Shown piece by piece: positions 2,909-58,562 of a stretch of 64,000 nt of DNA (position 1 is its first letter; each line of letters opens with the position of its first letter). The stretch covers positions 1 to 64,000 of IMG/VR virus record IMGVR_UViG_3300021255_000131; one strand, written 5' to 3'. The DNA is from a virus (taxonomy: Duplodnaviria; Caudoviricetes). The notes under the pieces were generated by a model. The model saw only the letters and a list, made by a program, of their open reading frames with translations. It searched no databases and was not told the origin of the DNA. The position numbers and the translations under genes were made by a program.

Positions 2909-2920
2909 GATTAAGGAGGC

Positions 2921-5074
2921 GTGAATATGAGTAACGAAAGAACTGTATGGGTTACTGGTGATAAAATTATTGCCAGTAAATTAAATAACACAGGCGACAA
3001 TATTGAAGCGTTGAAAGAGGAGACAGAAGAGAACTTTGAGAAAATACGCCATGAGTTAGATACACAAAAGGCGGACAAAACTGAGCTCGCTGATTTATAT
3101 ATTCAAACAGATTACTTGACAAGGCTCGCTAAAGAAAATAAGAAAATTAACGACGAGCTTAACGAAGAGTACTCAATGAGAGACGAAAAGATAGCTGCGC
3201 TGTTTGTCGATAACGATCGAATAACGAGAACGTTTGATGGGATACAATCTGATATAGCGGAGTTACGCGATCACGTATATGAGCATGAAGGCGAATTAAA
3301 CGAGGAGTCTGAAAGTTTTATCAGAGATCTCGCTGACGTAAAAGCAAACAATGTTGAAGTTGAAAATATAGCTATAGACGTCGATAAAGCGAAGCGCAAC
3401 ATAGAAGCTTTGACAGAAGAGGTGCGAAGAAAAGTTGACAATGAGCCTTTCTCTGCGCTTGATGCCGAAGTAGATATAATACAAAAAGACGTTGAAGATC
3501 TGAAACACGTTAATGATAACATCAGTATTGAACGCTTGAATGTAGCTGTTGATCAAATAGAGACAGCGCTTGAAAACAAGGCAGACAAAATGGAAGTAGG
3601 CGCCAGCAGATATGGAGAAGTTGGTCAATTATATCTGCAGGTTGATGAAAATAAACGAGATATAAAGCGTAAGGTAGGCGTAGATCATTTAGCTGCAGAG
3701 ATCGGCGCATTACATGTAGAAGCTGATGAATTAAAACGAAGCAACCTAAGTCAAGATTCTCTTATCAGCTACGTTAGAGAAGGTTTGTTGACGGCTAACG
3801 ACAACATTGCAGCAAAAGTGTCTAAGCCTTTTGTCGAAGGGCAGAGTGGCCAATTACTCAGCACAAACGGCGACGGAACAACAACATGGATCACTCCTTC
3901 TCCAGCTTCTGACGAACAGATTGGCACAGCTGTTTCAGATTGGCTCGACGATCATCCTGACGCTACAACGACAGTGCAAGATGGTTCAATCACTATAGAT
4001 AAACTGAGCCCAGAATTGATTGACACAATCGAAACATCTTCTGAAGCCAGAGACGCCAGCATATTGATAAACAGTATTCAATCAGAACTAATCGCGCAGA
4101 GAAGCATTGAAGATGAAATTCAGAAATACCTATTGACATTTGAAGGTCTACACGGAAAGCTTGAACAATATGCTGGAATGTTTAACGGCGGCGAGGGGAT
4201 TGGCTTTATATTTTTTACAGATCCGCATTGTATTGATATAACGTTTAACAAAAGCAATGAATATATGTTGAAGAATTTGCGAGAAATTCGTACGGTGTTT
4301 GAAAACAGCCCTGCAAGATATATATTATGCGGAGGGGACTGGATAAACGAAAAGTATACATATAATCAGGCGAAGTTATATAGTGGCCGCATTGTAAACC
4401 TAATGCGCGGGTGGCTCGGCGAACGTTCTTACACATGTGTTGGCAATCACGATCTTGGTTTTACAACCGGCTCTTCGAGATATAATGCGTCTGATGAAAA
4501 AGAGTTGGCCAACATGTGGTATGGAAAGAATGTTGGGTACTTTGTAATAGAAGACGGTAATGCAGACTGTTATGTTTTAGACAGTGGCATTGATAACGTC
4601 GATGGTACTAATCATGTTGTGCTGATGTACGAGTATAGATGGATACAGCTTGATTGGTTCGCAAACAAATTATTGACAAACACATCCAAACATTTATTCG
4701 GCGCGATACATATTCCGCCAATTTTCCCAGATACATCCGGTGAAACCGAAAACCCAATGACTATTAATGTTTGCGCAATAGCTGACGCATTCAATCGTAG
4801 AGCAAGCATTACTATAAACGAAAACACATATGACTTCTCAGATGCGACAGGTACTTTTCATTTTATGGTATGCGGGCACATACATAGTGATAGGAATTGG
4901 ACATGCAACAATATTCCTGTGTTTTCGTCACGAGCGCATCTTGATGAACAACCGATAGATTGTTGCTACGCTGACTTTGACGCGAGCGTGTTGCATATGT
5001 TACGCATCGGAGGAGGAAACAGCAGAGATTTTAATATTATCCCTAGTGGGCAGTATCAGGTTGCCGCAGGGTAA
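2921..5074 (+). CDS. Coiled-coil protein with C-terminal calcineurin-like metallophosphoesterase (tail-associated)
   Basis: Long heptad-rich N-terminus, then MPP motifs TDPH, GGD, GNHD, H and GHIH. AAGGAGG RBS. Confidence 0.7.
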   Translation: MNMSNERTVWVTGDKIIASKLNNTGDNIEALKEETEENFEKIRHELDTQKADKTELADLYIQTDYLTRLAKENKKINDELNEEYSMRDEKIAALFVDNDRITRTFDGIQSDIAELRDHVYEHEGELNEESESFIRDLADVKANNVEVENIAIDVDKAKRNIEALTEEVRRKVDNEPFSALDAEVDIIQKDVEDLKHVNDNISIERLNVAVDQIETALENKADKMEVGASRYGEVGQLYLQVDENKRDIKRKVGVDHLAAEIGALHVEADELKRSNLSQDSLISYVREGLLTANDNIAAKVSKPFVEGQSGQLLSTNGDGTTTWITPSPASDEQIGTAVSDWLDDHPDATTTVQDGSITIDKLSPELIDTIETSSEARDASILINSIQSELIAQRSIEDEIQKYLLTFEGLHGKLEQYAGMFNGGEGIGFIFFTDPHCIDITFNKSNEYMLKNLREIRTVFENSPARYILCGGDWINEKYTYNQAKLYSGRIVNLMRGWLGERSYTCVGNHDLGFTTGSSRYNASDEKELANMWYGKNVGYFVIEDGNADCYVLDSGIDNVDGTNHVVLMYEYRWIQLDWFANKLLTNTSKHLFGAIHIPPIFPDTSGETENPMTINVCAIADAFNRRASITINENTYDFSDATGTFHFMVCGHIHSDRNWTCNNIPVFSSRAHLDEQPIDCCYADFDASVLHMLRIGGGNSRDFNIIPSGQYQVAAG

Positions 5075-5091
5075 GAAAGGAAGATGTAATA

Positions 5092-6381
5092 ATGAGCGAT
5101 GCTCTTGAAAAATATTATGGTTCACTACATAATGTGGTGTTGCGTGATGATAACGGTAACCCGAGCATCTTTGTGCGGCACCCTAAAATAAAAAGCAGCG
5201 ATTTATTTAGCATACTGCCTGATCGTACACACCCCGCGTTTATTGTGAATGATGTTGAAGATCCGGCCTTACTGATCGGTAAATATATGGGTAGTACTTT
5301 AGTTAAAGATGGCACAATTTATTCTTTACCTTATGCAAAGCCAGACGTAGTTGATGACTATCGAACATATACACATTCTGTCTTGTTAAATCGTGTTCGT
5401 ATGTTTAAAGGTGCGACAGGAATAACAATCGCAGACTATGGGCTCATGTCATTGCTTGGTCAAAAGTATATATCTCAGGGCAACGGAACGCCGTGTTACG
5501 GCAACATAAACGTTTTTTCGTCGTATGAAGCCGGCAAGCATTTCGGACAAGATATTAACCACGGATGGGTTTACCCAAGTGTTACGGTCGGCGACAGATA
5601 CATATATCTCGGATGGCTTTATGAATGTGTAAAAAATCATCAGACATCTGCAAATTTGCCGCCGTCTATGCACCCTGAATTGTGGAAACCTTTGTATCGT
5701 GTTGGCGGGGTACCTGTGGATGAAAGTTGGTACAAATCGCAAACAGCTGTTTACCGCGGAAATTCACTTACAGGCAGTGGCCCTATTGACTGGTATTTTA
5801 TGCATGATATTTGCAATGAAGCAGACTTCTTTGGAAACGGAGAAGAATTAGTATACGGTGTACGTATTGCGCAAGGCGAGCTTCAAATACTTGCCAACAA
5901 CAATGCGGCAGATCCAAACGCGATCGTCATAGGTGACGAAGCTAACTGGCGGGCAATACTTCCTAATCAAAACAATTCTGAATATACATTGGTTAATCCA
6001 GGAGAAACTGGAACAATTAAAGTTCTTGTTGGAAGTAACACAGTACAATTTGTTACTCGAGATCTTACGGAAAATGATTTTGCTGCAGACGATGCTATGA
6101 CAAGCGTTTATTTCAATGCGATCACTGTAAACAGTGCTGAAATACCTTATGTGCCGTCTATTCTTTACGAACTTGGACTTCTTGCAATTCCAGGGTCGGG
6201 AGTAACTGGTGGAATGTGTATGTTCAGACGTAAGCTTGGTCGAACTTATTACTGTTCTCACGGTACATATTTTACACTAACAACTCAAAGAGTTGTTTTC
6301 CCTATATACAATTTTAATATGGAGGAAAACAACGGAGTGTATAAAGGCAACACGCGTCCTCGCGCAAGAGAAACTGAATAA
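5092..6381 (+). CDS. Putative receptor-binding protein, Mtd/FGE-sulfatase-like C-type lectin fold, with a CBM5/12-like insert
   Basis: 'HPAFIVN..IGKY' and 'LTGSGPIDW..HD...DFFGNGEE..GVRI' resemble the CLec-fold family. Insert 'VGDRYIYLGWLYECVKNHQTS...PELWK'. Confidence 0.55.
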   Translation: MSDALEKYYGSLHNVVLRDDNGNPSIFVRHPKIKSSDLFSILPDRTHPAFIVNDVEDPALLIGKYMGSTLVKDGTIYSLPYAKPDVVDDYRTYTHSVLLNRVRMFKGATGITIADYGLMSLLGQKYISQGNGTPCYGNINVFSSYEAGKHFGQDINHGWVYPSVTVGDRYIYLGWLYECVKNHQTSANLPPSMHPELWKPLYRVGGVPVDESWYKSQTAVYRGNSLTGSGPIDWYFMHDICNEADFFGNGEELVYGVRIAQGELQILANNNAADPNAIVIGDEANWRAILPNQNNSEYTLVNPGETGTIKVLVGSNTVQFVTRDLTENDFAADDAMTSVYFNAITVNSAEIPYVPSILYELGLLAIPGSGVTGGMCMFRRKLGRTYYCSHGTYFTLTTQRVVFPIYNFNMEENNGVYKGNTRPRARETE

Positions 6382-6386
6382 TAAAT

Positions 6387-7274
6387 TTGATAGGTGGGGT
6401 GATACCCATGGTTTATACAGAAGATACAATTGAAGTGTATGACGGATCGATGGATGCTACCCTACTGTTAAGTGAAATGGATGGATACATTTACCGTGTA
6501 CGCACCGTGCCTTTGCCGCACGGTGCGTATACATTTACAGTATGGGCAAAAGCTGATAGCAACATGCAGCTGAGCATAGATGTTCTTGGAAAGAATGAGA
6601 TATTTGATCTTGAGGCCGGACGTTGGACGAGACTTCATATTCTCAACGAAAATCCGACAGAAGATGAGAACGGCGATATTATCACATACGTAGACTTTCT
6701 TCCAGTATACGGATCAAACAGCGCTGACTTACATTTGTATAAGGCTATGCTTGAACAGAGCAATCATGCCTCGGACTGGAAACCAGCGCCGGAAGATACA
6801 GAAGAAAGTATTCTTGAATTAACGGAGCGAATCAAATCCGCTGAGATACAGATCAACAGCGATAGCATTGTTTCTCGCGTGTTTGAAAGCCAGAAGTACC
6901 AGAGCGACCAGGAAGAGCTCAGAAACGAGATGCAATCAACTGTTACGCAACAGATTGATTCAGTTGTGATGGAGTTCTCGCAGGTTGAGGAGATGGCGTC
7001 TGAAGCCAAGAGCTATGTAGACGAGGCGACAACATGGCAGCGCTTTGACGCTGAAGGTATTCATCTCGGTAAAGATCAGGCTGAGGATGGGCATAAGTTT
7101 ACGATGGACCTGTCAAACAAAGAGCTGGCTTTCAACGACGATGGTACAAAGGTTGCGTATATTAATAACCAAACAATGCACATTACGAACGCGGAAATTA
7201 TTTCAAAACTTACGCTTGGTAAGTTTGCCTTTATCCCGACGGAGACAGGCATGGCACTTATCTACGTGGGATAA
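6387..7274 (+). CDS. Tail protein
   Basis: 'LEQSNHASDWKPAPED', a coiled coil, and a beta-rich C-terminus 'FDAEGIHLG..VAYINNQTMHITNA' typical of siphophage tail proteins. Confidence 0.6.
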   Translation: MIGGVIPMVYTEDTIEVYDGSMDATLLLSEMDGYIYRVRTVPLPHGAYTFTVWAKADSNMQLSIDVLGKNEIFDLEAGRWTRLHILNENPTEDENGDIITYVDFLPVYGSNSADLHLYKAMLEQSNHASDWKPAPEDTEESILELTERIKSAEIQINSDSIVSRVFESQKYQSDQEELRNEMQSTVTQQIDSVVMEFSQVEEMASEAKSYVDEATTWQRFDAEGIHLGKDQAEDGHKFTMDLSNKELAFNDDGTKVAYINNQTMHITNAEIISKLTLGKFAFIPTETGMALIYVG

Positions 7275-7286
7275 GGTGGTGATTTT

Positions 7287-9662
7287 GTGGCGACTAAAAC
7301 AATCAGTATAGATAGTTTCAACTTAAAAAGTTCGTGGACATACAAAACAAGAACGATTGACCAAAATGGCTGGAGCCACTTTAGTAATCCATACGCTTCT
7401 ACGGCTACGAAAAAAGTTACAGTTGATTTATCTTCGATTCCAACTGGAAGCAGAATTACTTCCGCTACGCTGGCCGGTCAAGCCAGCTATGGATCAAGCC
7501 GGGCCGCCTATAACGGCGTGAGCGTAAACGTCGATGGTACGCAAAATGTAACATCGTGGTTTACAACACTTGCTTCAAGTATAACGATTCAGTTTTCATT
7601 TCAGTATAACGATCCGCAGCCGCCGATCGTTCAGCAAATGAGCCCGTCGTCTCCAACTTACAGCAGGACAAGCTATTTCCAGAACCTTGTATTGACCATT
7701 AACTATGAGCTTCCAAATTCTACCGGTAAGCTGAATAAAACCAGTGTCGTCGCACAGGACGGAGAGTCAATTAAGTTGACAATCACGCCGACAAACGCGT
7801 CTTATAAACACAAGGTAACGTGGAAGCTTGAAGGTGCTACGGCGGCAACGACGCATACGACAACGACTACGCTGAACGCTGGGGTCACAGAGAATACATG
7901 GAACCTCTCGTCCAGTTTCGTGGACGCTATTCCGTCTGCCGCGAGCAAGACAGCTTCGGTTATTCTGGAAACGCTTAACGGTGGAAATACTTTAGGCAGC
8001 GTTACGTATACGTTTACTGTCACGGTGCCGAGTACGATCAAGCCTTCTGTGAATATACAGACAGGGACGCTTACATGGACGAATCCAAACAACGACACGT
8101 TCAGCGGTGAACTTGTCCAGGGTATCAGCACCGCAAGGTTGAGGCTAAAGATTTCTGACGTCAGCGCCGGCGCGGGCAGCACAATCAAAAGCGTTGTGTT
8201 TTCCGGCTGGGGCGGAAGCAAGACGGCGACGAAGGATGATACGTACTATTATGCTGATACAGGGCTGCTGACATCCAGCGGCTATAAGACAATTAAAGTT
8301 GTTATTACAGATAACCGTGGAAGAAACCTGACGATTGAAAAAGGCAACAACACAACTGATCGATTTTTTGCGGTGCGCACATACAAAGAACCGACGATTG
8401 ATGGTATCTCAGTGAAACGCTGTACGGATCAGACCGGACAGACGCTTGACGATGTCGGTACTTATATGCGCATATCGGCAGACTTTACTTATCACAGGAT
8501 CAACAACAACAATGCTGCCGCGCAGAACTCTGTTACAATCAAAGCAAAATATAAAAGGAATACCGTTAGCAGCTATGGCGACGGCGAGTATAGTCTAAAC
8601 TGGACGTCAAGCCAGGAAGCCATTTCCGGCAACGTAAGGAACGTAGTCAACGGCGCGTACGTAGTAGTCGGCCCGATCAGCACAGACTACGCGTACGATA
8701 TTTCTGTAACGCTAAAAGACGCTTTAAACAAACAATCTACGGCAACCGCCGTGATACAGACAACGACGTACGTATTGCACTTTAAGAATGGCGGCACTGC
8801 CGTAGGCATAGGGCAGGCCGCTGGAAGCGCGAAGAGCGTAGTTGTGAACCCGGACTGGAACTTCAACATGTATGGCGGAAGAGCCGGAGAACATACAATA
8901 TATAAAGCAGAAATTGTCGCAACTGAAACCTCGCGCAAAGACTTGAACGACTATGTTGACTACGGTTATTACGCGATACACAGTAGCAGCGCGCCATACA
9001 TAGACAACTGTCCAGTAGATGCAACTGCCGGTGTGTTGATCGTTATGTCCGCGTGCGACGACGAACGAAGTAAAACATCGGCTTATTCTTACTGGTCTGC
9101 CATGCAGGTCTTTATATCGAGAAACGCGAGTATCTTTAAGCGATACATTAGAACAAACAGCGAGCCAGCTGTCATTGACGCAGGTACTTGGCAAAAGTTA
9201 ATGACCGCGTCAGACACGATTGAGATCGGAAATACAACAGGTACGCTGGCCGTAAGCAGAGGCGGAACAGGCGTTGCGGCAAACAGCCAAAACGCTTTAA
9301 AGACAAGCCTTGGAATCGCGCTTGGCGCCGGATCAACAATAACGTTCCCTGCAAACACCGTGTTCCCAGGCATGAAGACAAATAGCAATGGCAACATTCT
9401 TGTCACCTTTAATCTTGGCCGGCCGCTCATAGGAAATCTGAACGCGACGATCTCCGGAAGCGGTTGGCTATTGACAACGAGCGGCAAGACCAGCGAAACC
9501 GCTGAAACGATTGCCAGCATGGGAACGGCTAGAACGATTACATGTGATCCATCCGGCATCGTTAATTTAAATATTCAAGGTTCATTTGGCGGCACAAACA
9601 ACACGCCGGTTTCTTTGCTTACGTCAACGGCGGTTGGAATTACCTTCGCTGCCGCATCCTGA
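7287..9662 (+). CDS. Tail/baseplate structural protein (DUF859-like) with knob-like C-terminal domain
   Basis: Thr/Ser-rich beta-sandwich repeats, 'ITDNRGR', 'GGTAVGIG' and 'DLNDYVDYGYY..NCP..AGVLIV'. Tail gene context. Confidence 0.55.
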   Translation: MATKTISIDSFNLKSSWTYKTRTIDQNGWSHFSNPYASTATKKVTVDLSSIPTGSRITSATLAGQASYGSSRAAYNGVSVNVDGTQNVTSWFTTLASSITIQFSFQYNDPQPPIVQQMSPSSPTYSRTSYFQNLVLTINYELPNSTGKLNKTSVVAQDGESIKLTITPTNASYKHKVTWKLEGATAATTHTTTTTLNAGVTENTWNLSSSFVDAIPSAASKTASVILETLNGGNTLGSVTYTFTVTVPSTIKPSVNIQTGTLTWTNPNNDTFSGELVQGISTARLRLKISDVSAGAGSTIKSVVFSGWGGSKTATKDDTYYYADTGLLTSSGYKTIKVVITDNRGRNLTIEKGNNTTDRFFAVRTYKEPTIDGISVKRCTDQTGQTLDDVGTYMRISADFTYHRINNNNAAAQNSVTIKAKYKRNTVSSYGDGEYSLNWTSSQEAISGNVRNVVNGAYVVVGPISTDYAYDISVTLKDALNKQSTATAVIQTTTYVLHFKNGGTAVGIGQAAGSAKSVVVNPDWNFNMYGGRAGEHTIYKAEIVATETSRKDLNDYVDYGYYAIHSSSAPYIDNCPVDATAGVLIVMSACDDERSKTSAYSYWSAMQVFISRNASIFKRYIRTNSEPAVIDAGTWQKLMTASDTIEIGNTTGTLAVSRGGTGVAANSQNALKTSLGIALGAGSTITFPANTVFPGMKTNSNGNILVTFNLGRPLIGNLNATISGSGWLLTTSGKTSETAETIASMGTARTITCDPSGIVNLNIQGSFGGTNNTPVSLLTSTAVGITFAAAS

Positions 9663-47938: not shown

Positions 47939-48349
47939 ACAATAAACTACCTTCTTCTTTCTTTTATTTTCGTCAGCCGAATGTTTTCGTCGAGCTTAAT
48001 ATGGTTTTGTCCGCCCCTGAGAGGGCGGAACAAACAAACATAAGCAGAAACGTTTTTGTTTCAATAGAAATAAGCGCGAGTGACAGAGGGATAAGACGAA
48101 AGACCGCTCCTTACGTGACACGCCTAATGTTAAATGCTGTAAAGCGCCAGGTGTTACGCGTAAGACGACCAATATAACAAACGATCCCAGATGGTGGAAC
48201 CCATTTGCCTAAACTTGTTGTCAACAAGAGCGAATTGAACGTTTCCCGTGCGCCGCGCGAAGCGGAATACAGAAAGCGTTGAACACGCGGATAAAAACGT
48301 TTGCTGTTCATATTCATCTGTTCAGCCTTCTCAGGGGCGGACAGTTAAA

Positions 48350-50153: not shown

Positions 50154-50657
50154 TTATTGATGTAGTTTGGGTTTAGCATTGGACGACGTGAGATGATAGA
50201 AATGATCATCCCGCGTCAGGATCTCTGACATCAGAGGTTTCTTTTCCCAGAAAGCTTTGAGCCTGGCGAAGCCCTGGTCGGCCACCCTGCCAATATCCGG
50301 ATCGGGCACGCGCTTGATGAAGAGCGCGGGCCCTGTCTGATAGCCGGAAATATCGCACGGGAACCAGAACAGTCCGCCTTCCGGGTAGTATTTGCGCATC
50401 TTCTTGTTCTTGCGCCGGCCTGTTTGATACATCGTATCCCGCGTGCGGTAGCAGGAGAGAAAATCGATCATCTCCTCATGCCCGGTCAGCGTGGTGACAA
50501 GGACCTTCGGCATGGCGCCCAAGGTATTGTCCGGCTGAACGACGCGCCAGGGGGCGCGGCTTTCCGCCGTGCCCCTGGTTTTGCAGAGCACGTAAGAGGG
50601 AACGATGTTGCCTTTGCGCATATCCGTTTTCTTTACAATGGCGAGGTAGTAATACAT
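50154..50657 (-). CDS. Hypothetical basic protein
   Basis: AAGGAGG RBS; overlaps the 3' end of the RNA polymerase gene. Confidence 0.6.
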   Translation of the reverse strand: MYYYLAIVKKTDMRKGNIVPSYVLCKTRGTAESRAPWRVVQPDNTLGAMPKVLVTTLTGHEEMIDFLSCYRTRDTMYQTGRRKNKKMRKYYPEGGLFWFPCDISGYQTGPALFIKRVPDPDIGRVADQGFARLKAFWEKKPLMSEILTRDDHFYHLTSSNAKPKLHQ

Positions 50658-53452
50658 ACTTCCTCCTTGCGGCGCAGACGTTCTTTGACTTTGCTGGCGC
50701 GTTTAACAAGCTTCCTGTGCTTCGCCTGGCATTCCGGGCAGCGCTTTTGCCGACCATTGAGCCGGTGGCACCACTTGCCGCACTCGACACAGGTGAAGAA
50801 CCCTTTGACTGCGGCGGAACAGCCGTGCTCTTCCGTCCAGACGGGCAGCTTTATGCCGCAGTGAACGCAGGTAACGCAAGTCATGAGATTCAGCTTGAGA
50901 TTGCGTAATGCAATGTCTCCAAACACACGCCAGAACATTTGCTTATGCGCGGCTTTATCTTTTCCGTCGCCGACGAACAGGGTGTACGCGATGGACGGAT
51001 ACGCGGCTTCAATGCTGCCGCACAGCTCAGTGAGCTTATCTGTAATCAGTTCTTTGAGCGCCTCATAGCCGAAGGCGTTGTACATTTCCATAACGTCCAT
51101 CATGGACGCTCCGTCAATTCTGGATTGCAGATTGCTGTCATCGAGCCGGGAAAAAAGTTCAACGGCTTCTGTGTTGATCTCCGTGACCGGAGCTTCCAGA
51201 AACATCTCGCCGTTGAAGGGTGGAACGCCTACTGCGTTTAAGTTGATGTTGCCGATATTATCAAATAAAGCGCAAAGCCTGTTCATGGTAGAATTGTTGG
51301 CTTTCGCGCACTGCTTCTTCTTTTTCGTCGTGTCTGCATGGCGGCCGTTCTTGGAGAACTGGAACCAGTAAGGCATCTTACCGTTCGGGCCGCCGATTGC
51401 TTTATTGATTTTCGCAGAGACTTCCGGATAATTGGTATAACCGTTGACGGAACCTGTTTTGGCCCCGTCGATCGTGAGATTGTTGAAGTAACACAAAAGC
51501 GCGGCAGACTGTAAATCAGGATGCGGTCTGTTCCAAAGCCTGGTCAGGGCGTTTGAAATCTGGCCGATGCCACTGTAGTCATGCGCGCGCTTGACCCCGT
51601 GAAACAATGTTTCAAGGGAAATCTGTTCGGACGCGGCCTTGGTCGCGTCATAGAACAGGGGAACGATATCATACTCTTGAATGTTTCGCTTGGCGTTGTC
51701 GATCAGAATACGGTCTGAGACAACGTTGAGCTGATCTCCGTCTACATCGAACTGAAGAATTCTTGATATCAGATCATGACAGCTGGTGTAAATGCCGTTC
51801 GTGTAAAACCACGAGGCGATTTCCGGATCGTGATTGACGGTGCGAATCGCATGCTCGTTGAAAAGATGCGGACTCCTTAGAACATCTACCTCGTCTACAT
51901 CCCTGAACGGACGGGCAAAGACTTCGCCGTTTTTCAACAAACCTTCCGGCTCCTTCTGACCGAGAAACCAGTATTGGCAAGCGGCATACAGATCCGGAAT
52001 GGCAAACAGGCGTTTGTTTTTACAGCGTATTTTGCCGGACTTGGCGTCGAGCGTCCAACGCTTTTTGATTGCCTTCAAAGACTCTCTGGAATAAGCTTCG
52101 CGCAACAGCTCCGGATATAAAGTAAGCGCCTGACGATACGGGACTTCCGAATAATCGTCGGCGCCGAGCGCGTGAAGCATGTGTTCCCGGTCGTTCGAGA
52201 GGCTTTTGATCCGATCGTAGGTAGGCCTGACAAACTCCTTCAGCTCATTCTGTGGAAAATTTTGAAGCGTTTGAATGAACTGATAGTTGAGCTCGCTGTT
52301 GCCAATGTACGCCTCTTCCATGTTGGTGCGGCCAAATGTACAGCCGCAGGTCTTGAAGAAGGATTTGTACTCATCCCAGCTGTCGTAGTACTTCCACAGC
52401 TTGAGTTGTGACTTGGTGAAGACGACCTGTATGTCTTCCGCGCGGAGATCGTGCATCTGACCCCAGACGTCTTTCAGCTTTGCCTCGCAGCCGTTTTCCT
52501 CGCAGAAGCGTAGAAAATTAAAACTGCACAATAGGCCCTTTAAAAATGGACCTCGTATCATGAAATTCCATCTGGATACAGAAGGCAGCATCATGCCCGC
52601 GCCGTCACAATGGTTGATAACGACGGTCCGTTCGCCGCGCTCGATGGTGTAATCCGGACTGATATAATCCATCAGGCCGGTGACGGGAGCTTCAAAGTCG
52701 TCCACGACGATGCAGCGGTCAATATCGAGCGGGTAAGGATCCGTTGCCGAGCATGGCAGGGCCAAATACGCCATGAGCTTACTCGTATTAATTCCACCCC
52801 GTTCGTTGATGCGCTCCCAGCTGAGGCCGCACATAATGCGCGGCTCGATTCTTGACCAGGCGTCGTCTGAGAGAAACTGCACCTTGTCCGTTCTGAGCTG
52901 GCCGGCCGAAGCCGTAGAAAAGCGATAGCGTTTGACGGAAACGGAGCCATCCTCGTTCAGCACAGACATATTAAAACCCTGAAGGATGATCTGTCTTAAG
53001 ATATCTTCTGATTTCCACTTGATGATAATCTTGTCGAAGGTGATGTCGTTTTCGTTCAGGCCGAGGGCGCGGGTTTCTTCTGATACGAACTCGGCGATGC
53101 GGCGGTTGGGTTTGAGCGTTTTCCACGTGACGCCCGGCGGGCGTTCTGGAAGCGTTGGATCGAGGACGGCGCTGAGATTCACCGTCCGGGGGACATGCTC
53201 GTGCGAAGCGATGAGCTTGGCGAGAGCGTTTTGCTGTACACGTTTTTCATTGACGATTTCCTGACGGTTAGGTACGGTATCATTCAGCATGCGTTTCAAA
53301 CGGGCGATGTTGAAGAAAATCACGCGCTCCTCGTCAGTCAGCAGATCGTACGTAGAGAAACTTGCGAGGCGGATTTGACTGCTCAGATAAGATTTGTTAC
53401 TCGTGAAACCACCTCTTTTGAAAAGTAAAGCGGCATGTGCCGCTGGGTGCAT
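50633..53452 (-). CDS. YonO-like single-subunit two-barrel DNA-dependent RNA polymerase
   Basis: 'ASAGQLR', 'HCDGAGM', 'IRGPFLKG', 'LRSPHL' and catalytic 'LQFDVDGD', as in the SPbeta YonO/RdRP-like family. C-terminal Cys-rich Zn ribbons. Start uncertain (~53405-53452). Confidence 0.85.
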   Translation of the reverse strand: MHPAAHAALLFKRGGFTSNKSYLSSQIRLASFSTYDLLTDEERVIFFNIARLKRMLNDTVPNRQEIVNEKRVQQNALAKLIASHEHVPRTVNLSAVLDPTLPERPPGVTWKTLKPNRRIAEFVSEETRALGLNENDITFDKIIIKWKSEDILRQIILQGFNMSVLNEDGSVSVKRYRFSTASAGQLRTDKVQFLSDDAWSRIEPRIMCGLSWERINERGGINTSKLMAYLALPCSATDPYPLDIDRCIVVDDFEAPVTGLMDYISPDYTIERGERTVVINHCDGAGMMLPSVSRWNFMIRGPFLKGLLCSFNFLRFCEENGCEAKLKDVWGQMHDLRAEDIQVVFTKSQLKLWKYYDSWDEYKSFFKTCGCTFGRTNMEEAYIGNSELNYQFIQTLQNFPQNELKEFVRPTYDRIKSLSNDREHMLHALGADDYSEVPYRQALTLYPELLREAYSRESLKAIKKRWTLDAKSGKIRCKNKRLFAIPDLYAACQYWFLGQKEPEGLLKNGEVFARPFRDVDEVDVLRSPHLFNEHAIRTVNHDPEIASWFYTNGIYTSCHDLISRILQFDVDGDQLNVVSDRILIDNAKRNIQEYDIVPLFYDATKAASEQISLETLFHGVKRAHDYSGIGQISNALTRLWNRPHPDLQSAALLCYFNNLTIDGAKTGSVNGYTNYPEVSAKINKAIGGPNGKMPYWFQFSKNGRHADTTKKKKQCAKANNSTMNRLCALFDNIGNINLNAVGVPPFNGEMFLEAPVTEINTEAVELFSRLDDSNLQSRIDGASMMDVMEMYNAFGYEALKELITDKLTELCGSIEAAYPSIAYTLFVGDGKDKAAHKQMFWRVFGDIALRNLKLNLMTCVTCVHCGIKLPVWTEEHGCSAAVKGFFTCVECGKWCHRLNGRQKRCPECQAKHRKLVKRASKVKERLRRKEEVCITTSPL

Positions 53453-53484
53453 CCGCGCTGACTTTTGCGCGGATGTAGGAAATA

Positions 53485-53680
53485 TTGAAAACCGGAGGCA
53501 TCGTCTCTAAGTTGTTCTACTCCGAGGATCGTTTCGGCGGTGGCTGCCACCAGGCGTAGCCTTGGTGGCAGCCTGAGCCGAAACGAGCCGAGAAATCGTA
53601 ATTTAAGACGAAGCTCCTGATGACATCAAGAGTGCTAAACCCGCAGGTAAAGCCAGTGCACGATGCCTCCGGTTGTTCAA
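53485..53680 (-). ncRNA. Retron-type msr/msd ncRNA, located 3' of the RT gene
   Basis: Terminal inverted repeat AACCGGAGGCATCGT (53490-53504) / ACGATGCCTCCGGTT (53660-53674), extended by TTGAA/TTCAA. Unpaired G at 53659. Short msr-like stems, then a long msd-like hairpin at 53529-53586. Confidence 0.78.
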
Positions 53681-54832
53681 TCAGTTTGCATAACGCAATG
53701 CTTGTTTAATCATTACGTTTTTGTCGTACCACCAGATGTGAAACTTCCCTTTGGTATGATCGAACACATGCTTGGTGAATTCTGGTTCGATATAGCTGTA
53801 GTAGCTCCAGCGGCCGATGAAAGATTTGACCCAATCTTTTGACAGCGTTCCGCGGAAATTCTTGACGAAGTTGTACATATCCGCTTTGAAGAGCCGTTTC
53901 ACCTGATGGCCGATGGTGATCTTGTGATCGGCGTTCAGCATGTAGCCGAGATTCCAGTTCGCGCCTTTGATGCTGCCATATCTGGTCTTTTTGCTGTTCA
54001 GTTTATAAGGATAGCCCAGCCTGAACAGGAGACCAAGGACATCGTGGTGGATGATGTATTGTTTGACGTGGCTGAAGTCGCCATAGCCTGAGATCAGACA
54101 ATCGTCCGCGTAGCGGGTGTAGACATAGCCCGATCCCAGGACCCTGGTCAGCTCATAATCAAATGGGATCATGATCAGATTGGTGAGCATGGGGGAAAGC
54201 GTTGTGCCCTGCGGCAAACCGCCACGCAGGAACGCGTAGCTCAACGCCTTTTCGAGCTTTGCTTTTCTGGCCGGATCCTGCATAAATGTATTGAACGGCC
54301 AAATTGCGCCCAGAATATTCATGACTGTCGCGAGCGAAGTCGAGCCAAAGAAATCATGAAAATCGGTCTTCAGGAAGTAACTGCTGTTCTGATGCCGCTG
54401 GATGCACTTGTAGGTGTTGCGATAGCGGACGTAAGCGTAGGCCGCGCTGTGATACAGCGCGAAGAACCGCCTGCGGAGAATTTTCTCGATTTCTTCATGA
54501 ACTTTTCTGAGCTCAGGCTTGGGATCATCGATGGGCCTGACGCCGCCGGAACGCTTTGGGATGGTGTAATGCTTGTACCAGCTTTCCGGATCGCCGGTGA
54601 CGGTTTTCTCCGCCAGATCGATCACGGCGTCGAGCGCGGTCTCGGCCGCTTCCGCGTCAAAAAGGTAGGAGAATTCCTGCGGGACGGTGTTGGTTTTGAT
54701 TGTTTTCGTCGCTGCGGAGCCGTACATGAAGTTGCTTTCAGCGCCCGGAATCTCAGGATCAGTGTCCATCAGAAGAGACATGTATATTTGTTCTTCGTTT
54801 GTTTTGCCAAAGAGGCGCCGCGTAATGTACAT
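53681..54832 (-). CDS. Retron-type reverse transcriptase
   Basis: 'YTIPKRSGGVRPI..P..L', 'AYAY', 'CIQRH' (region X position), 'KTDFHDFFGS', 'LPQGTTLSPMLTN', 'YTRYADD', 'NSKKTR' and 'NLG' (region Y position). 383 aa with no evident maturase or endonuclease domain. Confidence 0.9.
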   Translation of the reverse strand: MYITRRLFGKTNEEQIYMSLLMDTDPEIPGAESNFMYGSAATKTIKTNTVPQEFSYLFDAEAAETALDAVIDLAEKTVTGDPESWYKHYTIPKRSGGVRPIDDPKPELRKVHEEIEKILRRRFFALYHSAAYAYVRYRNTYKCIQRHQNSSYFLKTDFHDFFGSTSLATVMNILGAIWPFNTFMQDPARKAKLEKALSYAFLRGGLPQGTTLSPMLTNLIMIPFDYELTRVLGSGYVYTRYADDCLISGYGDFSHVKQYIIHHDVLGLLFRLGYPYKLNSKKTRYGSIKGANWNLGYMLNADHKITIGHQVKRLFKADMYNFVKNFRGTLSKDWVKSFIGRWSYYSYIEPEFTKHVFDHTKGKFHIWWYDKNVMIKQALRYAN

Positions 54833-54842
54833 TTTAACTCCT

Positions 54843-55514
54843 TTACAGGGCGAGAACGTCCCAGGTTTCCGTATTGATCAGGATGGTTTTCTTGATGGTT
54901 TTCTTCTTGACGAAGTCAAGAAAGTTGACGACGCCGCAGGTGACGATCATACGAACGGTGGCGGCGACGCCCAGTGTGACGCGGCACGCGGACATCGGCG
55001 TCTCCTGTGCCGCTTCCTCATGCGTGAATTGCATTGAAGCGATGAACGCTTCTTTCTGCTTTTCATTAGACCAGTCCGCCGCGTAATGCTGCGCGTCGGT
55101 CAGGCGTGTTCTGAAATCGAACATAGCCTTGATGAACGGATTGCTCTTGTTCTCTTCAGCAATCTTACGGCGCAGCTCGATATTATCAACGCAGAGGAAG
55201 ACATAGCCGCTCAGCTTCTGATTGGTGTAGCCTTTGTCCGCGACGCGCAGAGATTCCGCGATTTCCGGGTTAATGGCCACAAGATGATCAGCCAGGGCTG
55301 TCACCTTTTCTTTGCCGATGTCCGCCGAAGTAAACATCTGGTTAACGATGTTCTTGGGCTCAACGTAATCGAAATCATAGAGCGTGATGTCCTTGAGCCC
55401 GTAACGAACAAGCAGCTCCGCAAGCGTAGAGCCTACGGAGCCGCAGCCGATGATATGGATACGGCCTTCCGCCATGGAAGGCTGAAAGAAGTCATAGCTT
55501 TTCGACAGATCCAT
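54843..55514 (-). CDS. E1/ThiF-family adenylating enzyme
   Basis: 'IIGCGSVGS', 'DFDYVEPKNIVNQ', 'CVDNIELR', and candidate catalytic Cys in 'MSAC'. Confidence 0.92.
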   Translation of the reverse strand: MDLSKSYDFFQPSMAEGRIHIIGCGSVGSTLAELLVRYGLKDITLYDFDYVEPKNIVNQMFTSADIGKEKVTALADHLVAINPEIAESLRVADKGYTNQKLSGYVFLCVDNIELRRKIAEENKSNPFIKAMFDFRTRLTDAQHYAADWSNEKQKEAFIASMQFTHEEAAQETPMSACRVTLGVAATVRMIVTCGVVNFLDFVKKKTIKKTILINTETWDVLAL

Positions 55515-56344
55515 TACGAATAACTCCTTCCGTACGGATAGCCGCGACCGTAAGGCGCCGTGCCATCGTCAAAAAGATCGTCGTAATCTTCGTACGGGTC
55601 CTCAGCGGCCTTTTTTTGCTTTTCCTTTTCCTTTTTCTCTTTCTTTCCGCCGTTGATAACCGTACCTGTAAAGACCGTTTTTTTAACCCTGGCCTGCGCG
55701 GCCTGAATGAAACTCGTTTTGGTGTAGGTGTTGTCCGTGCCGCCGTAGTCGAACACGATGGAGAGATCGATATCCTTCGTTTCATACATGACGTTGTTCG
55801 GGATATCGTAGATAGCGCTGCTGATTTCACCCTTCTTGTTCCAGATCTGGAAAATCCAGGCTTTATCAGGATCAGACGCCTTCATCAGATTCGCTCGGTG
55901 CGTCATATCGGTCGAGGAAGGGAACACGGCCATATTGACATGACTGTGACCGTGAAAGAACATATGATCCGCCTGGTCCTGTGTGAGATGCTGCAGGAAC
56001 ATCGGGTAGCTGTTTTCGCCCTCGTAGACGGTGTTGACGGTCGTGCCGGTCACCTCCTGATCGTACACGAGGACGTCGTAGACGAGCCAGGTTCTGTCGC
56101 TGGTCTTGCGTACCAGGGCGTGCCAGCCGACCTCAGAATCGAATTTCTGAACGAGCAGCAGCATCTTGATGTACGCTTCCGCGGAATATGAGATGGTGGC
56201 GCGTTCTTCCGGCAGCGCGTCGCGGGACGCGAAGCTACGGGTGAAGGTGAAGTGTCCGTCGGACAGACGAGCCGTCTCGAGCTCCTTCAGGAACTCCTGT
56301 CTCATTTTCTCTTTATCGGCTTCGGTAATTGTAATCGGTTTCAT
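55514..56344 (-). CDS. JAB/JAMM metallopeptidase
   Basis: 'SEVGW' Glu plus an exact HxHx7SxxD (HSHVNMAVFPSSTD). Charged, low-complexity tail. Confidence 0.88.
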   Translation of the reverse strand: MKPITITEADKEKMRQEFLKELETARLSDGHFTFTRSFASRDALPEERATISYSAEAYIKMLLLVQKFDSEVGWHALVRKTSDRTWLVYDVLVYDQEVTGTTVNTVYEGENSYPMFLQHLTQDQADHMFFHGHSHVNMAVFPSSTDMTHRANLMKASDPDKAWIFQIWNKKGEISSAIYDIPNNVMYETKDIDLSIVFDYGGTDNTYTKTSFIQAAQARVKKTVFTGTVINGGKKEKKEKEKQKKAAEDPYEDYDDLFDDGTAPYGRGYPYGRSYS

Positions 56345-57693
56345 TTCTGCTCCTTCAGTTTCTCCAACGCTTCTTTTGCGTTATATTCGTTGCCGTCCTT
56401 GTCGATGAGGACTTTTTCTTTCTTGGTGGTGGCGAAGAGCCGCTTCATAAACGGGATAAAGGTGACGCCTGTCTCTGCCAGGTTGATAGACTGGCAGGAC
56501 GCGACGCACTGCTCAATGGCGCCGATATAGTTGCTGTTGCGGATCGCCGTTCTGATCGGGTCGCGGTAAGAACCGAGACACTGATGATATTGCAGATGCG
56601 GATTCGGAAGATACTGACGGGTCAGCTCTTCCGGATATTCGTAATTGCGGAAGACGGCCACGTCCGTGTTGAGCGCGTATATGGCGCACAGACGAATGCG
56701 GAAAACCGGATCATCCGAGAAGATCGCGTCCATCAGGAGTTTGCGGTCTTCTACCTTGCAGAAAGGCGGATCGGCGGTCATACGGTAGATAGAGCCGTTC
56801 GAGGAGGCACGGCGATAAAAGTCCAGGTCGAACCAGTCTGCGGTCGTCTTGACGTAGAATTTGATGGTGCCGTCGGAAACGTTGACAAGCTGAAGGTTCT
56901 TGTGCCGCTTGAAATAATCGACAAGCTCGGTGCTCTCGTTCTTCGGTCGGGCGAGCAGGGCTTCATATTTAATCGTCGCGTCGTTGACCTTCTGCACCAG
57001 GCGGGCGTATTCGGCGACATTATCTTCGAGCGCCGCCCGTGCGACCCGCAGGGTGTTGTTGGTTTCATCAATACTGCGTTCGAGCTCGACGTTGGCGAAG
57101 CGCTTAAGCAGGACTTCGTTCAGCTCGTTCTCAAGACCGGACTGACGGACCAGCTTCGCGATCATGGACTCGAAGTCTCCAGAGGTGCGCTTGGTCATGG
57201 AGAAGCATAACTTCTTCTCGTCATCGGTCAGCGGCTTTTCATCAAATGGCGTTTTGATAAACAGCGGGAGCAGCGACATAAGCATGTGCGTCTTGCGGGT
57301 ATCGAGCTCCTGCGAGAAGACGACCGCGCTGTTGATATCATGGTTGACGAAGATCTGGCAGCTCAGCCATTTCGAAAGATAGTTTTCGGCCTTTTCGAGC
57401 TTGGTGTAGGCGGGATGCGACGCGGCGAACGAATCGTCGGTCGTGTGAACGATATTGAAGGATTTCGGCAGCTGCGTGTCCGGGATCGGCCACGACTCCT
57501 TAATGCTTCTGAGGGTCAGGGTTTCGTCTTCCGGCAGCCTGTTAAACAAAAGAATCCTTGCCGTCGCGAGGCATGTGCTATCATCCGAATCGAACGGGTA
57601 ATGTTTATCGACGCTGATTCTGCTGAGGATTCCGTGTTCGTTGCCGAACGTGTCGGTCAGGCCGCGGACGGTATTGAATGTTGCGCTGAACAT
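56341..57693 (-). CDS. Coiled-coil protein with C-terminal prokaryotic E2-like domain
   Basis: 'LPNPHLQYHQCLG' resembles the E2 HPN..CL(G) active-site region. It lies between the Ubl and JAB genes. Confidence 0.65.
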   Translation of the reverse strand: MFSATFNTVRGLTDTFGNEHGILSRISVDKHYPFDSDDSTCLATARILLFNRLPEDETLTLRSIKESWPIPDTQLPKSFNIVHTTDDSFAASHPAYTKLEKAENYLSKWLSCQIFVNHDINSAVVFSQELDTRKTHMLMSLLPLFIKTPFDEKPLTDDEKKLCFSMTKRTSGDFESMIAKLVRQSGLENELNEVLLKRFANVELERSIDETNNTLRVARAALEDNVAEYARLVQKVNDATIKYEALLARPKNESTELVDYFKRHKNLQLVNVSDGTIKFYVKTTADWFDLDFYRRASSNGSIYRMTADPPFCKVEDRKLLMDAIFSDDPVFRIRLCAIYALNTDVAVFRNYEYPEELTRQYLPNPHLQYHQCLGSYRDPIRTAIRNSNYIGAIEQCVASCQSINLAETGVTFIPFMKRLFATTKKEKVLIDKDGNEYNAKEALEKLKEQK

Positions 57694-57749: not shown

Positions 57750-58364
57750 TTACTGAATGGTGATGAAGCCCTTGATCTTCTCCTGATCCGCGTGGATGGA
57801 CGCGACGGCGTCAGCGAAGTTCTCCTCGATCTTGTTCAGATAGAGCAGGCCCATGCCGATCTTGTCGGTCAGCTGGGCTTCGATATCATTGTCGCGGTCG
57901 ACGCACATTGTGATGGTGGCGTAGCCTTCCTGGTTCGTGGCCTCGGAGAAGGTGGCGCCCTTATCGTTGATAGAGCCGGAGGAGCGGGTGGTCACGTCGA
58001 TGCCGAAGAGCTGCTCGTTCTTCTTATCGTCCTTGTAGAGCTTCAGAGCCTCGGGGCGATACTTCTTCGCGAGCTGAATATCCTCGAGCTTCAGCGCGGA
58101 GGTGACGACAGCGGCTTCACCGATAACGGTCACGGTGGCGGCGTTATCCGCCTTCACGACGACGGACAGGTAGCAGGCATCCTCGATACCGTGCTGCGCG
58201 AATGTCTTATCGAGATCGCCGGGACGCAGGGAGCATCCGTCGATCTGGGTCATGCCGACGGAATAGTTGACGCGGTTCTCGTCGAGAACTTCGCGGACGG
58301 TGGCGTCTTCAGAAACGTTGATGGTTTTGCGGCCGGAATTGGTGATGAGGGTGATCTGGATCAT
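57750..58364 (-). CDS. Ubiquitin-like (beta-grasp) domain fused to a ~130-aa C-terminal domain
   Basis: Start MIQITL after AAGGAG. 'ITLITNSGRKTINVSEDATVREVL..IDG..L...DLDKTFAQHGIEDACYLSVVVKADNA' follows the Ub-fold pattern. Confidence 0.72.
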   Translation of the reverse strand: MIQITLITNSGRKTINVSEDATVREVLDENRVNYSVGMTQIDGCSLRPGDLDKTFAQHGIEDACYLSVVVKADNAATVTVIGEAAVVTSALKLEDIQLAKKYRPEALKLYKDDKKNEQLFGIDVTTRSSGSINDKGATFSEATNQEGYATITMCVDRDNDIEAQLTDKIGMGLLYLNKIEENFADAVASIHADQEKIKGFITIQ

Positions 58365-58562
58365 TGTGTTTTCTCCTTTTTTTGATCGATAGTGAATTAA
58401 TTTGATTTTTTGTGCGGCAAAATACACCGCGCGGCAACAATACGCGCCGCCAAAAATATATGTGGTTGTTCAGATGATGGTCAGGCGCTCGGGCCGGCTC
58501 TCACCTTAATCATGCGCTGCCTCCTTTCCTGTTGGCATAAAGATATAAACGGAACGCTCCGT

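Follow-up and report, generated by a model that had tools for sequence, protein, structure and literature searches.

A likely retron template RNA directly downstream of a divergent reverse transcriptase gene in a large tailed phage

A 196-nt structured RNA encoded immediately after the gene for a reverse transcriptase (RT) in a tailed phage is likely to be the template RNA (the msr-msd equivalent) of a phage-encoded retron, located at the 3' end of the RT transcript. The msDNA, its branch and its role are inferred, with no cDNA data at hand. The RNA lies in a stretch of 64,000 nucleotides, called here the window, which represents the first 64 kb of a complete genome of 111,048 bp with direct terminal repeats (IMG/VR record IMGVR_UViG_3300021255_000131). 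The phage encodes a terminase, a portal protein, a tail fibre, a DNA polymerase, a primase-helicase, NrdD, a Sak SSAP and an RNase H (genome positions 65053 to 65460), and the retron locus sits within its replication and recombination module, which comprises the DNA polymerase, the primase-helicase and the Sak SSAP. The features of the locus are listed in Table 1.

TABLE 1 Features of the retron-like locus, with positions in the window
Feature	Position	Strand	Remarks
Whole retron-like ncRNA (msr-msd analogue), 196 nt	53485..53680	-	First base follows the RT stop codon
5' arm a1	53660..53680	-	Pairs with 53484-53504; extra pair to the A of the RT stop codon, 53681
Unpaired G directly 3' of a1, candidate priming (branch) guanosine	53659	-	Priming inferred
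msr-like hairpin 1	53634..53653	-	Length and sequence differ among relatives
msr-like hairpin 2	53614..53632	-	CUCUUGAUGUCAUCAGGAG, i.e., CUCUUGAU-GUC-AUCAGGAG; U·G pair invariant
Long interrupted hairpin, msd-like	53526..53589	-	Lower stem, 3x3 internal loop, upper stem, triloop
3' linker	53505..53525	-	Small predicted hairpin; ends in ...UUAGAG just before a2
3' arm a2	53484..53504	-	Pairs with a1
Conserved 3' flank of the ncRNA	53429..53482	-	Leader alignment by eye
939-aa protein, probably a YonO-like single-subunit RNA polymerase	50633..53452	-	phrog_8308, 4.7e-176; Pfam RdRP, 2e-05, at threshold
Retron-clade RT, 383 aa	53681..54832	-	Pfam RVT_1, 1.4e-16
ThiF/E1-like adenylyltransferase	54843..55514	-	Pfam ThiF, 3e-24; PADLOC CBASS E1-E2 models
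JAB/JAMM-like protein, 276 aa	55514..56344	-	Motif HGHSHVNMAVFPSSTD; protein-atlas lead to Prok-JAB clusters, 0.95
450-aa protein, possibly E2-like	56341..57693	-	Weak lead only: nearest named atlas clusters Prok-E2_D, 0.84
225-aa protein, ThiS/MoaD-like (beta-grasp) N-terminus	57750..58427	-	By eye only, first 80 residues

The locus had no blastn match among GenBank phages, and a tblastn search of the same phages with the RT retrieved a single distant relative (33%). Homologues of the RT amounted to 1,850 proteins in a metagenome protein set and to at least 470 loci in IMG/VR. A metagenome scan using a single RT protein found only five loci, none of them close, and the close relatives analyzed below were retrieved through look-ups by identity and not via that scan. 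Scanning viral contigs for the exact 15-nt core of hairpin 2 gave matches essentially at chance level, which were not used.

Read on the strand of the RT gene, the RNA is closed by its two arms, which form a stem of 21 bp with one bulged C, while the long hairpin (26 bp) is built of 10 bp, a 3x3 internal loop, 11 bp, a bulged A, 3 bp and a triloop. The predicted RNA fold of positions 53470 to 53690 reached -104.8 kcal/mol, compared to -60.5 +/- 4.5 in shuffled sequences (z = -9.8), and none of the 200 shuffles was as good. As DNA, the plus strand between 53505 and 53610 also folded better than its 200 shuffles (z = -7.2). An Rfam search of the ncRNA region gave no family match, only chance snoRNA-like matches. 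The first-pass annotation, which was made from the sequence alone, had described arms, an unpaired G at 53659, short stems and a long hairpin on the minus strand, and all of these held, coordinates included. Its lengths (arms of 20 bp with one bulge and a hairpin of about 24 bp) are close to those computed here. It had also placed the RNA downstream of an RT gene, which held as well, the RT being confirmed by Pfam, PADLOC and NCBIfam.

The conservation of the element was evaluated in a close clade of eight sequences with RT identities of 49 to 97%, made up of the window and seven relatives (L208, L001, L002, L206, L207, L209 and L210), all of which carry the ncRNA directly after the RT stop codon. 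When the arms and hairpin 2 were aligned across the clade, 94.9% of the cells were paired. Thirteen pairs showed double compensatory changes, compared to 5.7 +/- 1.5 in shuffles (none of 500 as high) and to no more than six doubly changed pairs in controls with slid partners. Both sides had changed in 11 of the 19 arm pairs, G·U pairs being present in the arms, and in hairpin 2 two pairs covaried, so that the CUUGAUGUCAUCAGG hairpin was kept through compensatory changes. The unpaired G53659 was found in eight of eight sequences, in the context U-G-C/U-A. The pairing of a1 with a2 and the invariant G are thus supported by covariation. The motif of hairpin 2 appeared once per locus, on the RT strand and 17 to 101 nt past the RT stop codon (14 loci), extending to the more distant lineages L039, L053 and L058, and L036 has a similar compact unit. 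A purine-rich sequence ending in ...(U)AG recurs directly 5' of a2 in the close clade, with UGUAG in a distant clade (see below). The RT itself is less conserved than its neighbours (58% identity in L001, compared to 79 to 89% for the 225-aa protein, the E1-like protein and the 939-aa protein and 60 to 66% for the 450-aa and 276-aa proteins).

In L036, at about positions 5400 to 5450, a tRNA T-arm signature (GGGTTCGAATCCCAC) is found shortly downstream of the compact ncRNA unit. The window has a second structured noncoding element of about 335 nt (48008 to 48343, minus strand; z = -6.9), located after a 205-aa ORF and without an adjoining RT, in which an interrupted closing stem of about 45 bp surrounds several hairpins, and one of them (CUCUUGUUGACAACAAG) bears a faint likeness to hairpin 2.

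A more distant clade, with 35 to 45% RT identity, has an msr module in the order a1, G, NAUA, hairpin 1, a hairpin GCUUAUCGCCAAAGGCAUAAG and UAACAAC, with compensatory changes in 12 of its 15 pairs. A covariance model made from this module gave 151 matches in the fetched loci, all of them on the RT strand and 1 to 7 per locus. In whole phage records, the unit is present in a cluster of 3 to 7 copies, which reaches from about 1.5 kb on the upstream side of the RT to about 10 kb on its downstream side. The junction column was G in 127 of 129 distinct units, and in 82% of the 129 units the junction G was abutted by an a1/a2 stem without interruption that had a score of 8 or more (in base pairs, with G·U counted as half, and with the a2 partner 230 to 370 nt downstream), compared to 3.6% at random G positions. 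The 5' arms represented 69 different sequences. Conservation beside homologous RTs was a test that the first-pass annotation had named for its proposal, and the structure passed it, both in the eight close-clade sequences and in some 130 distant units. Among 75 loci of the distant clade, 54 had a unit just upstream of the RT and 35 had one starting within 120 nt past the RT stop codon, with both arrangements in 34. The 98.8-kb record L040 carries seven paralogous units on one strand in about 5 kb around a single RT (locus positions 3428 to 8693) and L035 carries five; both sets look array-like, and their arms and msd regions differ. In L003, an extra ORF of 269 aa (2722 to 3531), without a Pfam match, is found between the E1 gene and the upstream ncRNA unit.

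It could be argued that the element acts at the DNA level: it might be an origin of replication or a site of recombination, a palindrome bound by a protein, or a small mobile element that has terminal inverted repeats, and it might lie beside the RT by chance or be kept there for some other reason. In favor of this, the long hairpin comes close to a perfect palindrome on either strand and the locus belongs to a replication and recombination module. However, G·U pairs occur in the arms, and hairpin 2 has a U·G pair that is invariant. On the other strand these would be A·C mismatches, which indicates selection on the RNA in the sense of the RT and not on a DNA palindrome. In addition, the element is single copy within the 111-kb genome, with no target-like match, every match of the covariance model falls on the RT strand, and there is no pair of template and variable repeats as found in diversity-generating retroelements. 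We consider a DNA-level element very unlikely. A diversity-generating retroelement as such was also rejected, since no part of the ncRNA has a second copy in the genome beyond chance 10- to 12-mers.

Within the retron reading, the long hairpin would be the reverse-transcribed part. It is found in every close-clade lineage with the same design (lower stem, 3x3 internal loop and upper stem) but in unrelated sequence. The apex on the plus strand, at positions 53553 to 53561, is GGCGTAGCC, that is, GGC-GTA-GCC. GNA triloops closed by a C·G pair form very stable DNA mini-hairpins, and the plus strand has C-GTA-G here. The first-pass annotation had pointed to this GC-GTA-GC loop as a sign that the hairpin is optimized as DNA. 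The loop is present, but it is not a feature of the family: GTA occurs only in the window and in the near-identical L208, and in L206 the DNA sense has GAA and the RNA sense UUCG, which makes two of six lineages, while the remaining ones have unrelated loops, including GCAA on the RNA sense. As a family trait the GNA loop was therefore rejected, and as a sign of DNA optimization it is suggestive at best.

The composition of the pairs offers better support. G·U pairs are ruled out in a helix that has to form in the RNA as well as in the DNA copied from it, since each of them would turn into an A·C mismatch in the copy. In the eight sequences, the long hairpins had 2 G·U pairs of 216, compared to 38 of 369 in all the other helices (Fisher p = 2e-6), and this near-absence fits a reverse-transcribed msd, an inference that rests on predicted pairs. 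The test is limited in that these are pairs of minimum free energy (MFE) predictions and that only about six lineages are independent. The contrast was much weaker in the distant clade (6.2% in the msd against 11.6% in the msr).

The RT has a YADD active site and an N-terminal extension of about 80 aa. Its best PADLOC matches were to RT_II-A (1e-43), followed by III-A and I-A (down to 4e-36), all of the top 25 being retron RTs, and the best NCBIfam match was retron_St85_RT (3e-46), well ahead of group II RT (1e-14) and Drt2 (2e-08). When a profile of the family was compared to the PDB, the first match was the Ec83 RT (2e-43), then Ec78, St85, Ec67 and Ec86 (to 4e-23), with a group II RT at 6e-20. 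Overall, for this RT the retron profiles were ahead of the group II and DRT models by over 20 orders of magnitude. On the other hand, its score of 158 bits is below the curated cut-off of 235 for NF038233 (retron_St85_RT), and the best PADLOC type model, II-A, gave only 148 bits, so the RT fits none of types I to XIII. Aligned to the Ec83 RT, the NAKIH of region X (consensus NAXXH) is replaced by CIQRH and the VTG of region Y by NLG. The H and the G are the most conserved residues of these two retron motifs (PMC7736814), and the corresponding H147 and G296 were invariant across 22 members of the family, while the remaining residues of NAXXH and VTG were not kept. In an RT tree that has three retron RTs as outgroups, the phage family is monophyletic. 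Since retron profiles match best, yet score below the cut-off, and the motifs are degenerate, this enzyme is a divergent member of the retron clade that falls outside the described types.

The position of the RNA relative to the RT departs from the canonical retron cassette, in which the msr-msd is found upstream of the RT (PMC7736814, PMC6868368). The window does not follow that order, as the ncRNA starts at the first base past the RT stop codon and is the sole unit of the genome. The reversed gene order is real in this genome, as had been proposed at the outset, although many relatives have units on both sides of the RT. Across the family the layout comprises one ncRNA or several, and the window shows one of its forms. 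In a quick RT tree, rooted with three bacterial-type retron RTs, the window clade and other lineages with downstream units only fall near the base, and those with units on both sides form the crown clade. No direction of change (loss or gain of the upstream unit) is claimed, because the tree does not resolve its basal forks and has long outgroup branches.

With a gap of 10 nt between the E1-like gene and the RT gene, other junctions that overlap and terminators following the ncRNA in relatives, we infer that a single operon, running from the ubiquitin-like (Ubl) gene through the E2-like, JAB and E1 genes to the RT, is transcribed through the ncRNA and ends at it or just past it. Clear intrinsic terminators come after the ncRNA in L078, L053 and L058, so the RNA seems to form the 3' end of the transcript of the RT operon and not a leader for the gene that follows. 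Downstream, the conserved flank consists of a UUUCCUAC box (53482 to 53475), a covarying hairpin (53472 to 53453) and a terminator-like hairpin with a U-rich tail (53444 to 53429). The box lies directly 3' of the ncRNA and is kept in all the close relatives. It was rejected as a repeated phage promoter, since no further copies occur between the genes of this phage. The box might belong to the ncRNA as an extension of its 3' end, or it might serve in processing or regulation, but neither is more than a possibility.

The gene that follows, for the 939-aa protein, comes after the RT and ncRNA only in lineages of the window type. Its start is uncertain, as the sole in-frame ATG (53452) abuts the hairpin and lacks a ribosome-binding site, and the terminator-like hairpin falls inside the predicted N-terminus of the protein. 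In this region (53380 to 53452), the sequence AAGAGGUGGUUUCACGAGUA is conserved at the nucleotide level across relatives with 72 to 96% protein identity. In a relative with 58% identity the homologue is split into ORFs of 561 and 370 aa with an HNH_3 endonuclease gene between them (L204, 7437 to 10960; L205, 6169 to 9692), which might be a homing endonuclease or an intron insertion. The phage also has a second, divergent paralogue of the 939-aa protein (genome 68268 to 71081; L211, 4268 to 7081, minus strand; phrog_8308, 2e-22) and an ORF of 5,918 aa (genome 91012 to 108768). It is thus possible that a single phage has several noncanonical RNA polymerase-like proteins.

One could also suppose that the RNA is a cis-acting element of the operon that is never reverse transcribed, either stabilizing or terminating the RT mRNA at its 3' end or serving the polymerase gene as a leader. 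Its intergenic position, the U-rich sequence past a2, the terminator-like hairpins nearby and the lack of cDNA data would all be compatible with this. However, neither a terminator nor a leader calls for a closing stem of about 20 bp ending at an invariant G, or for two conserved hairpins inside it together with a long hairpin that is hypervariable and lacks G·U, and the element tracks the RT rather than the neighbouring gene. The architecture fits instead the published description of an msr-msd transcript (PMC7736814), and we regard a purely cis-acting RNA as very unlikely.

Another alternative is that RNA and RT do work as partners, but in a nonclassical way. One form of it would be a triggered cDNA that regulates the downstream polymerase gene, as in the "hybrid RNA" of type VI retrons, where the msr-msd and a repressed coding sequence share one RNA (Retron-Vpa2; bioRxiv 10.1101/2025.10.22.683967). 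The type VI case shows that noncanonical placement and regulated cDNA synthesis exist among retrons (same reference), and the phage RNA is likewise contiguous with other coding sequence of an operon and precedes the 939-aa gene, whose candidate start directly follows the hairpin at 53472 to 53453. Against this, no conserved complementarity or direct repeat links the msd and the leader among the eight close-clade sequences, intrinsic terminators intervene before the next gene in the three relatives mentioned above, and many units of the distant clade have no 939-aa gene after them. Riboregulation of the type VI kind was rejected on the lack of conserved direct or inverted msd-leader repeats and on the terminators in relatives. 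The downstream gene differs too, being a large polymerase-like protein here and a small toxin in type VI.

The other form would be a short, unbranched hairpin cDNA like those of UG27, phage RTs that copy ncRNA hairpins into cDNA hairpins of 50 to 100 nt (PMC9226505; bioRxiv 10.64898/2026.09.22.753630). The likeness includes a phage RT, ncRNA units of diverse sequence and conserved fold and, in the distant clade, several units per RT in an array-like arrangement; by analogy, short hairpin cDNA products would be expected for the phage family as well. UG27 RTs, however, belong to class 2 of the UG/Abi enzymes and have YSDD at the active site. Their ncRNA units measure about 150 nt and carry AUC...UANAG and UUYA motifs, and two accessory ORFs (sORF and bORF) go with them, whereas the units described here measure 196 to 370 nt, have a1/a2 arms and a junction G and are surrounded by Ubl-pathway genes. 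Identity with UG27 was rejected on the YADD active site, the profile scores (retron far above Drt2 and Drt3), the unit size and the partners. The invariant G abutting a1 is, moreover, a signature of retron priming. Taken together, we judge both nonclassical uses unlikely and prefer the retron reading.

If the RNA is indeed a retron template, the mechanism may be outlined as follows. Pairing of the arms, which like the invariant G is shown by covariation, would place G53659 beside the 3' end of the template. The RT would recognize the msr-like hairpins, chiefly CUCUUGAUGUCAUCAGGAG of hairpin 2, which we infer to be the likely recognition element. By analogy with retrons, the RT would prime from the 2'-OH of G53659 and copy the template through the long hairpin, reverse transcription starting at about 53505, the first templated base predicted. 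The product, again by analogy, would be a single-stranded DNA of about 90 to 100 nt that refolds into the same hairpin, which the near-pure Watson-Crick pairing supports, and the template may be trimmed by an RNase H of the phage or of the host. The size of the msDNA, the 2'-5' branch and the start near 53505 had all been put forward by the first-pass annotation, and they remain inferences.

The comparison with classical retrons (Retron-Eco7/Ec78 of type I-A, Eco4/Ec83 and Sen2/St85 of type II-A; PMC7736814) shows both shared and distinct features. Shared are a retron-clade RT with YADD, closure by the a1/a2 inverted repeats, a G right after a1, short msr hairpins and a long msd stem-loop, as well as the location of RT and ncRNA on one strand and in one operon with conserved accessory genes alongside. 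The phage RNA fits the retron pattern of one to three msr hairpins plus a long msd stem-loop, with two short hairpins and one of 26 bp. The phage system differs in having its ncRNA 3' of the RT, or units on both sides in 1 to 7 copies in relatives, and in its carriers, which are not defence islands or P2-like prophages but large phages that have a replication module and whose genomes end in direct terminal repeats. Its RT has degenerate NAXXH and VTG motifs, the N-terminal extension of about 80 aa and sub-cut-off scores and belongs to none of the 13 types, and its accessory genes are a Ubl/E2-like/JAB/E1 set. The degenerate motifs, the score below the cut-off, the order of RT followed by ncRNA and the nonconserved GNA loop are among the points that speak against the retron reading.

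In nearly all of about 85 loci, the same four genes (those for the 225-aa, 450-aa, JAB-like and E1-like proteins) precede the RT, the E1-like gene being the one upstream of it, and homologues of the 225-aa protein are syntenic in many. Searches of the 450-aa and 276-aa proteins against Pfam, NCBIfam and PADLOC gave no matches. Bil (BilABCD) and the Cap2/Cap3 genes of CBASS likewise combine Ubl-like, E2-like, JAB and E1 (ThiF) genes in one operon. The gene order of the window cassette matches that of Bil. Unlike those systems, the window cassette is encoded by a phage and is followed by an RT and an ncRNA, its E2 assignment is only a weak lead, and no partner genes of Bil or CBASS were seen beside it. 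Synteny alone leads us to infer that the Ubl cassette is the functional partner of the retron, which most likely acts with it in phage-host or phage-phage conflict, although this role has not been shown.

Published retron surveys searched mainly upstream of the RT (PMC6868368). A 2024 survey reported retron-like RT clades in viruses, with RNAs unmentioned in its retron passages, and in the literature that we searched there was no retron-clade phage RT with a downstream or multi-copy ncRNA and none paired with a Ubl cassette. A bolder reading, possible when taken as a whole, is that these loci form an undescribed, large family of phage-owned retrons in which one RT serves 1 to 7 templates located after and/or before its gene, and the hairpin DNAs control or direct the Ubl machinery, for instance by acting as a scaffold or a sensor when proteins are tagged during conflict. 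In that case the order of RT followed by ncRNA may be ancestral.

Retrons have so far been defined and searched for as units of bacterial defence with the ncRNA upstream of the RT. Here a single viral collection holds a family of at least 470 loci in which the template is found downstream or on both sides, several templates per RT are possible, the owner is a phage and the Ubl neighbours are nearly constant. If msDNA is confirmed, the rules for finding retron templates would widen, and retron editing tools would gain natural multi-template scaffolds and compact ncRNAs bearing hairpins. One would then also have to ask what use a virus makes of a retron and of a pathway that tags proteins.
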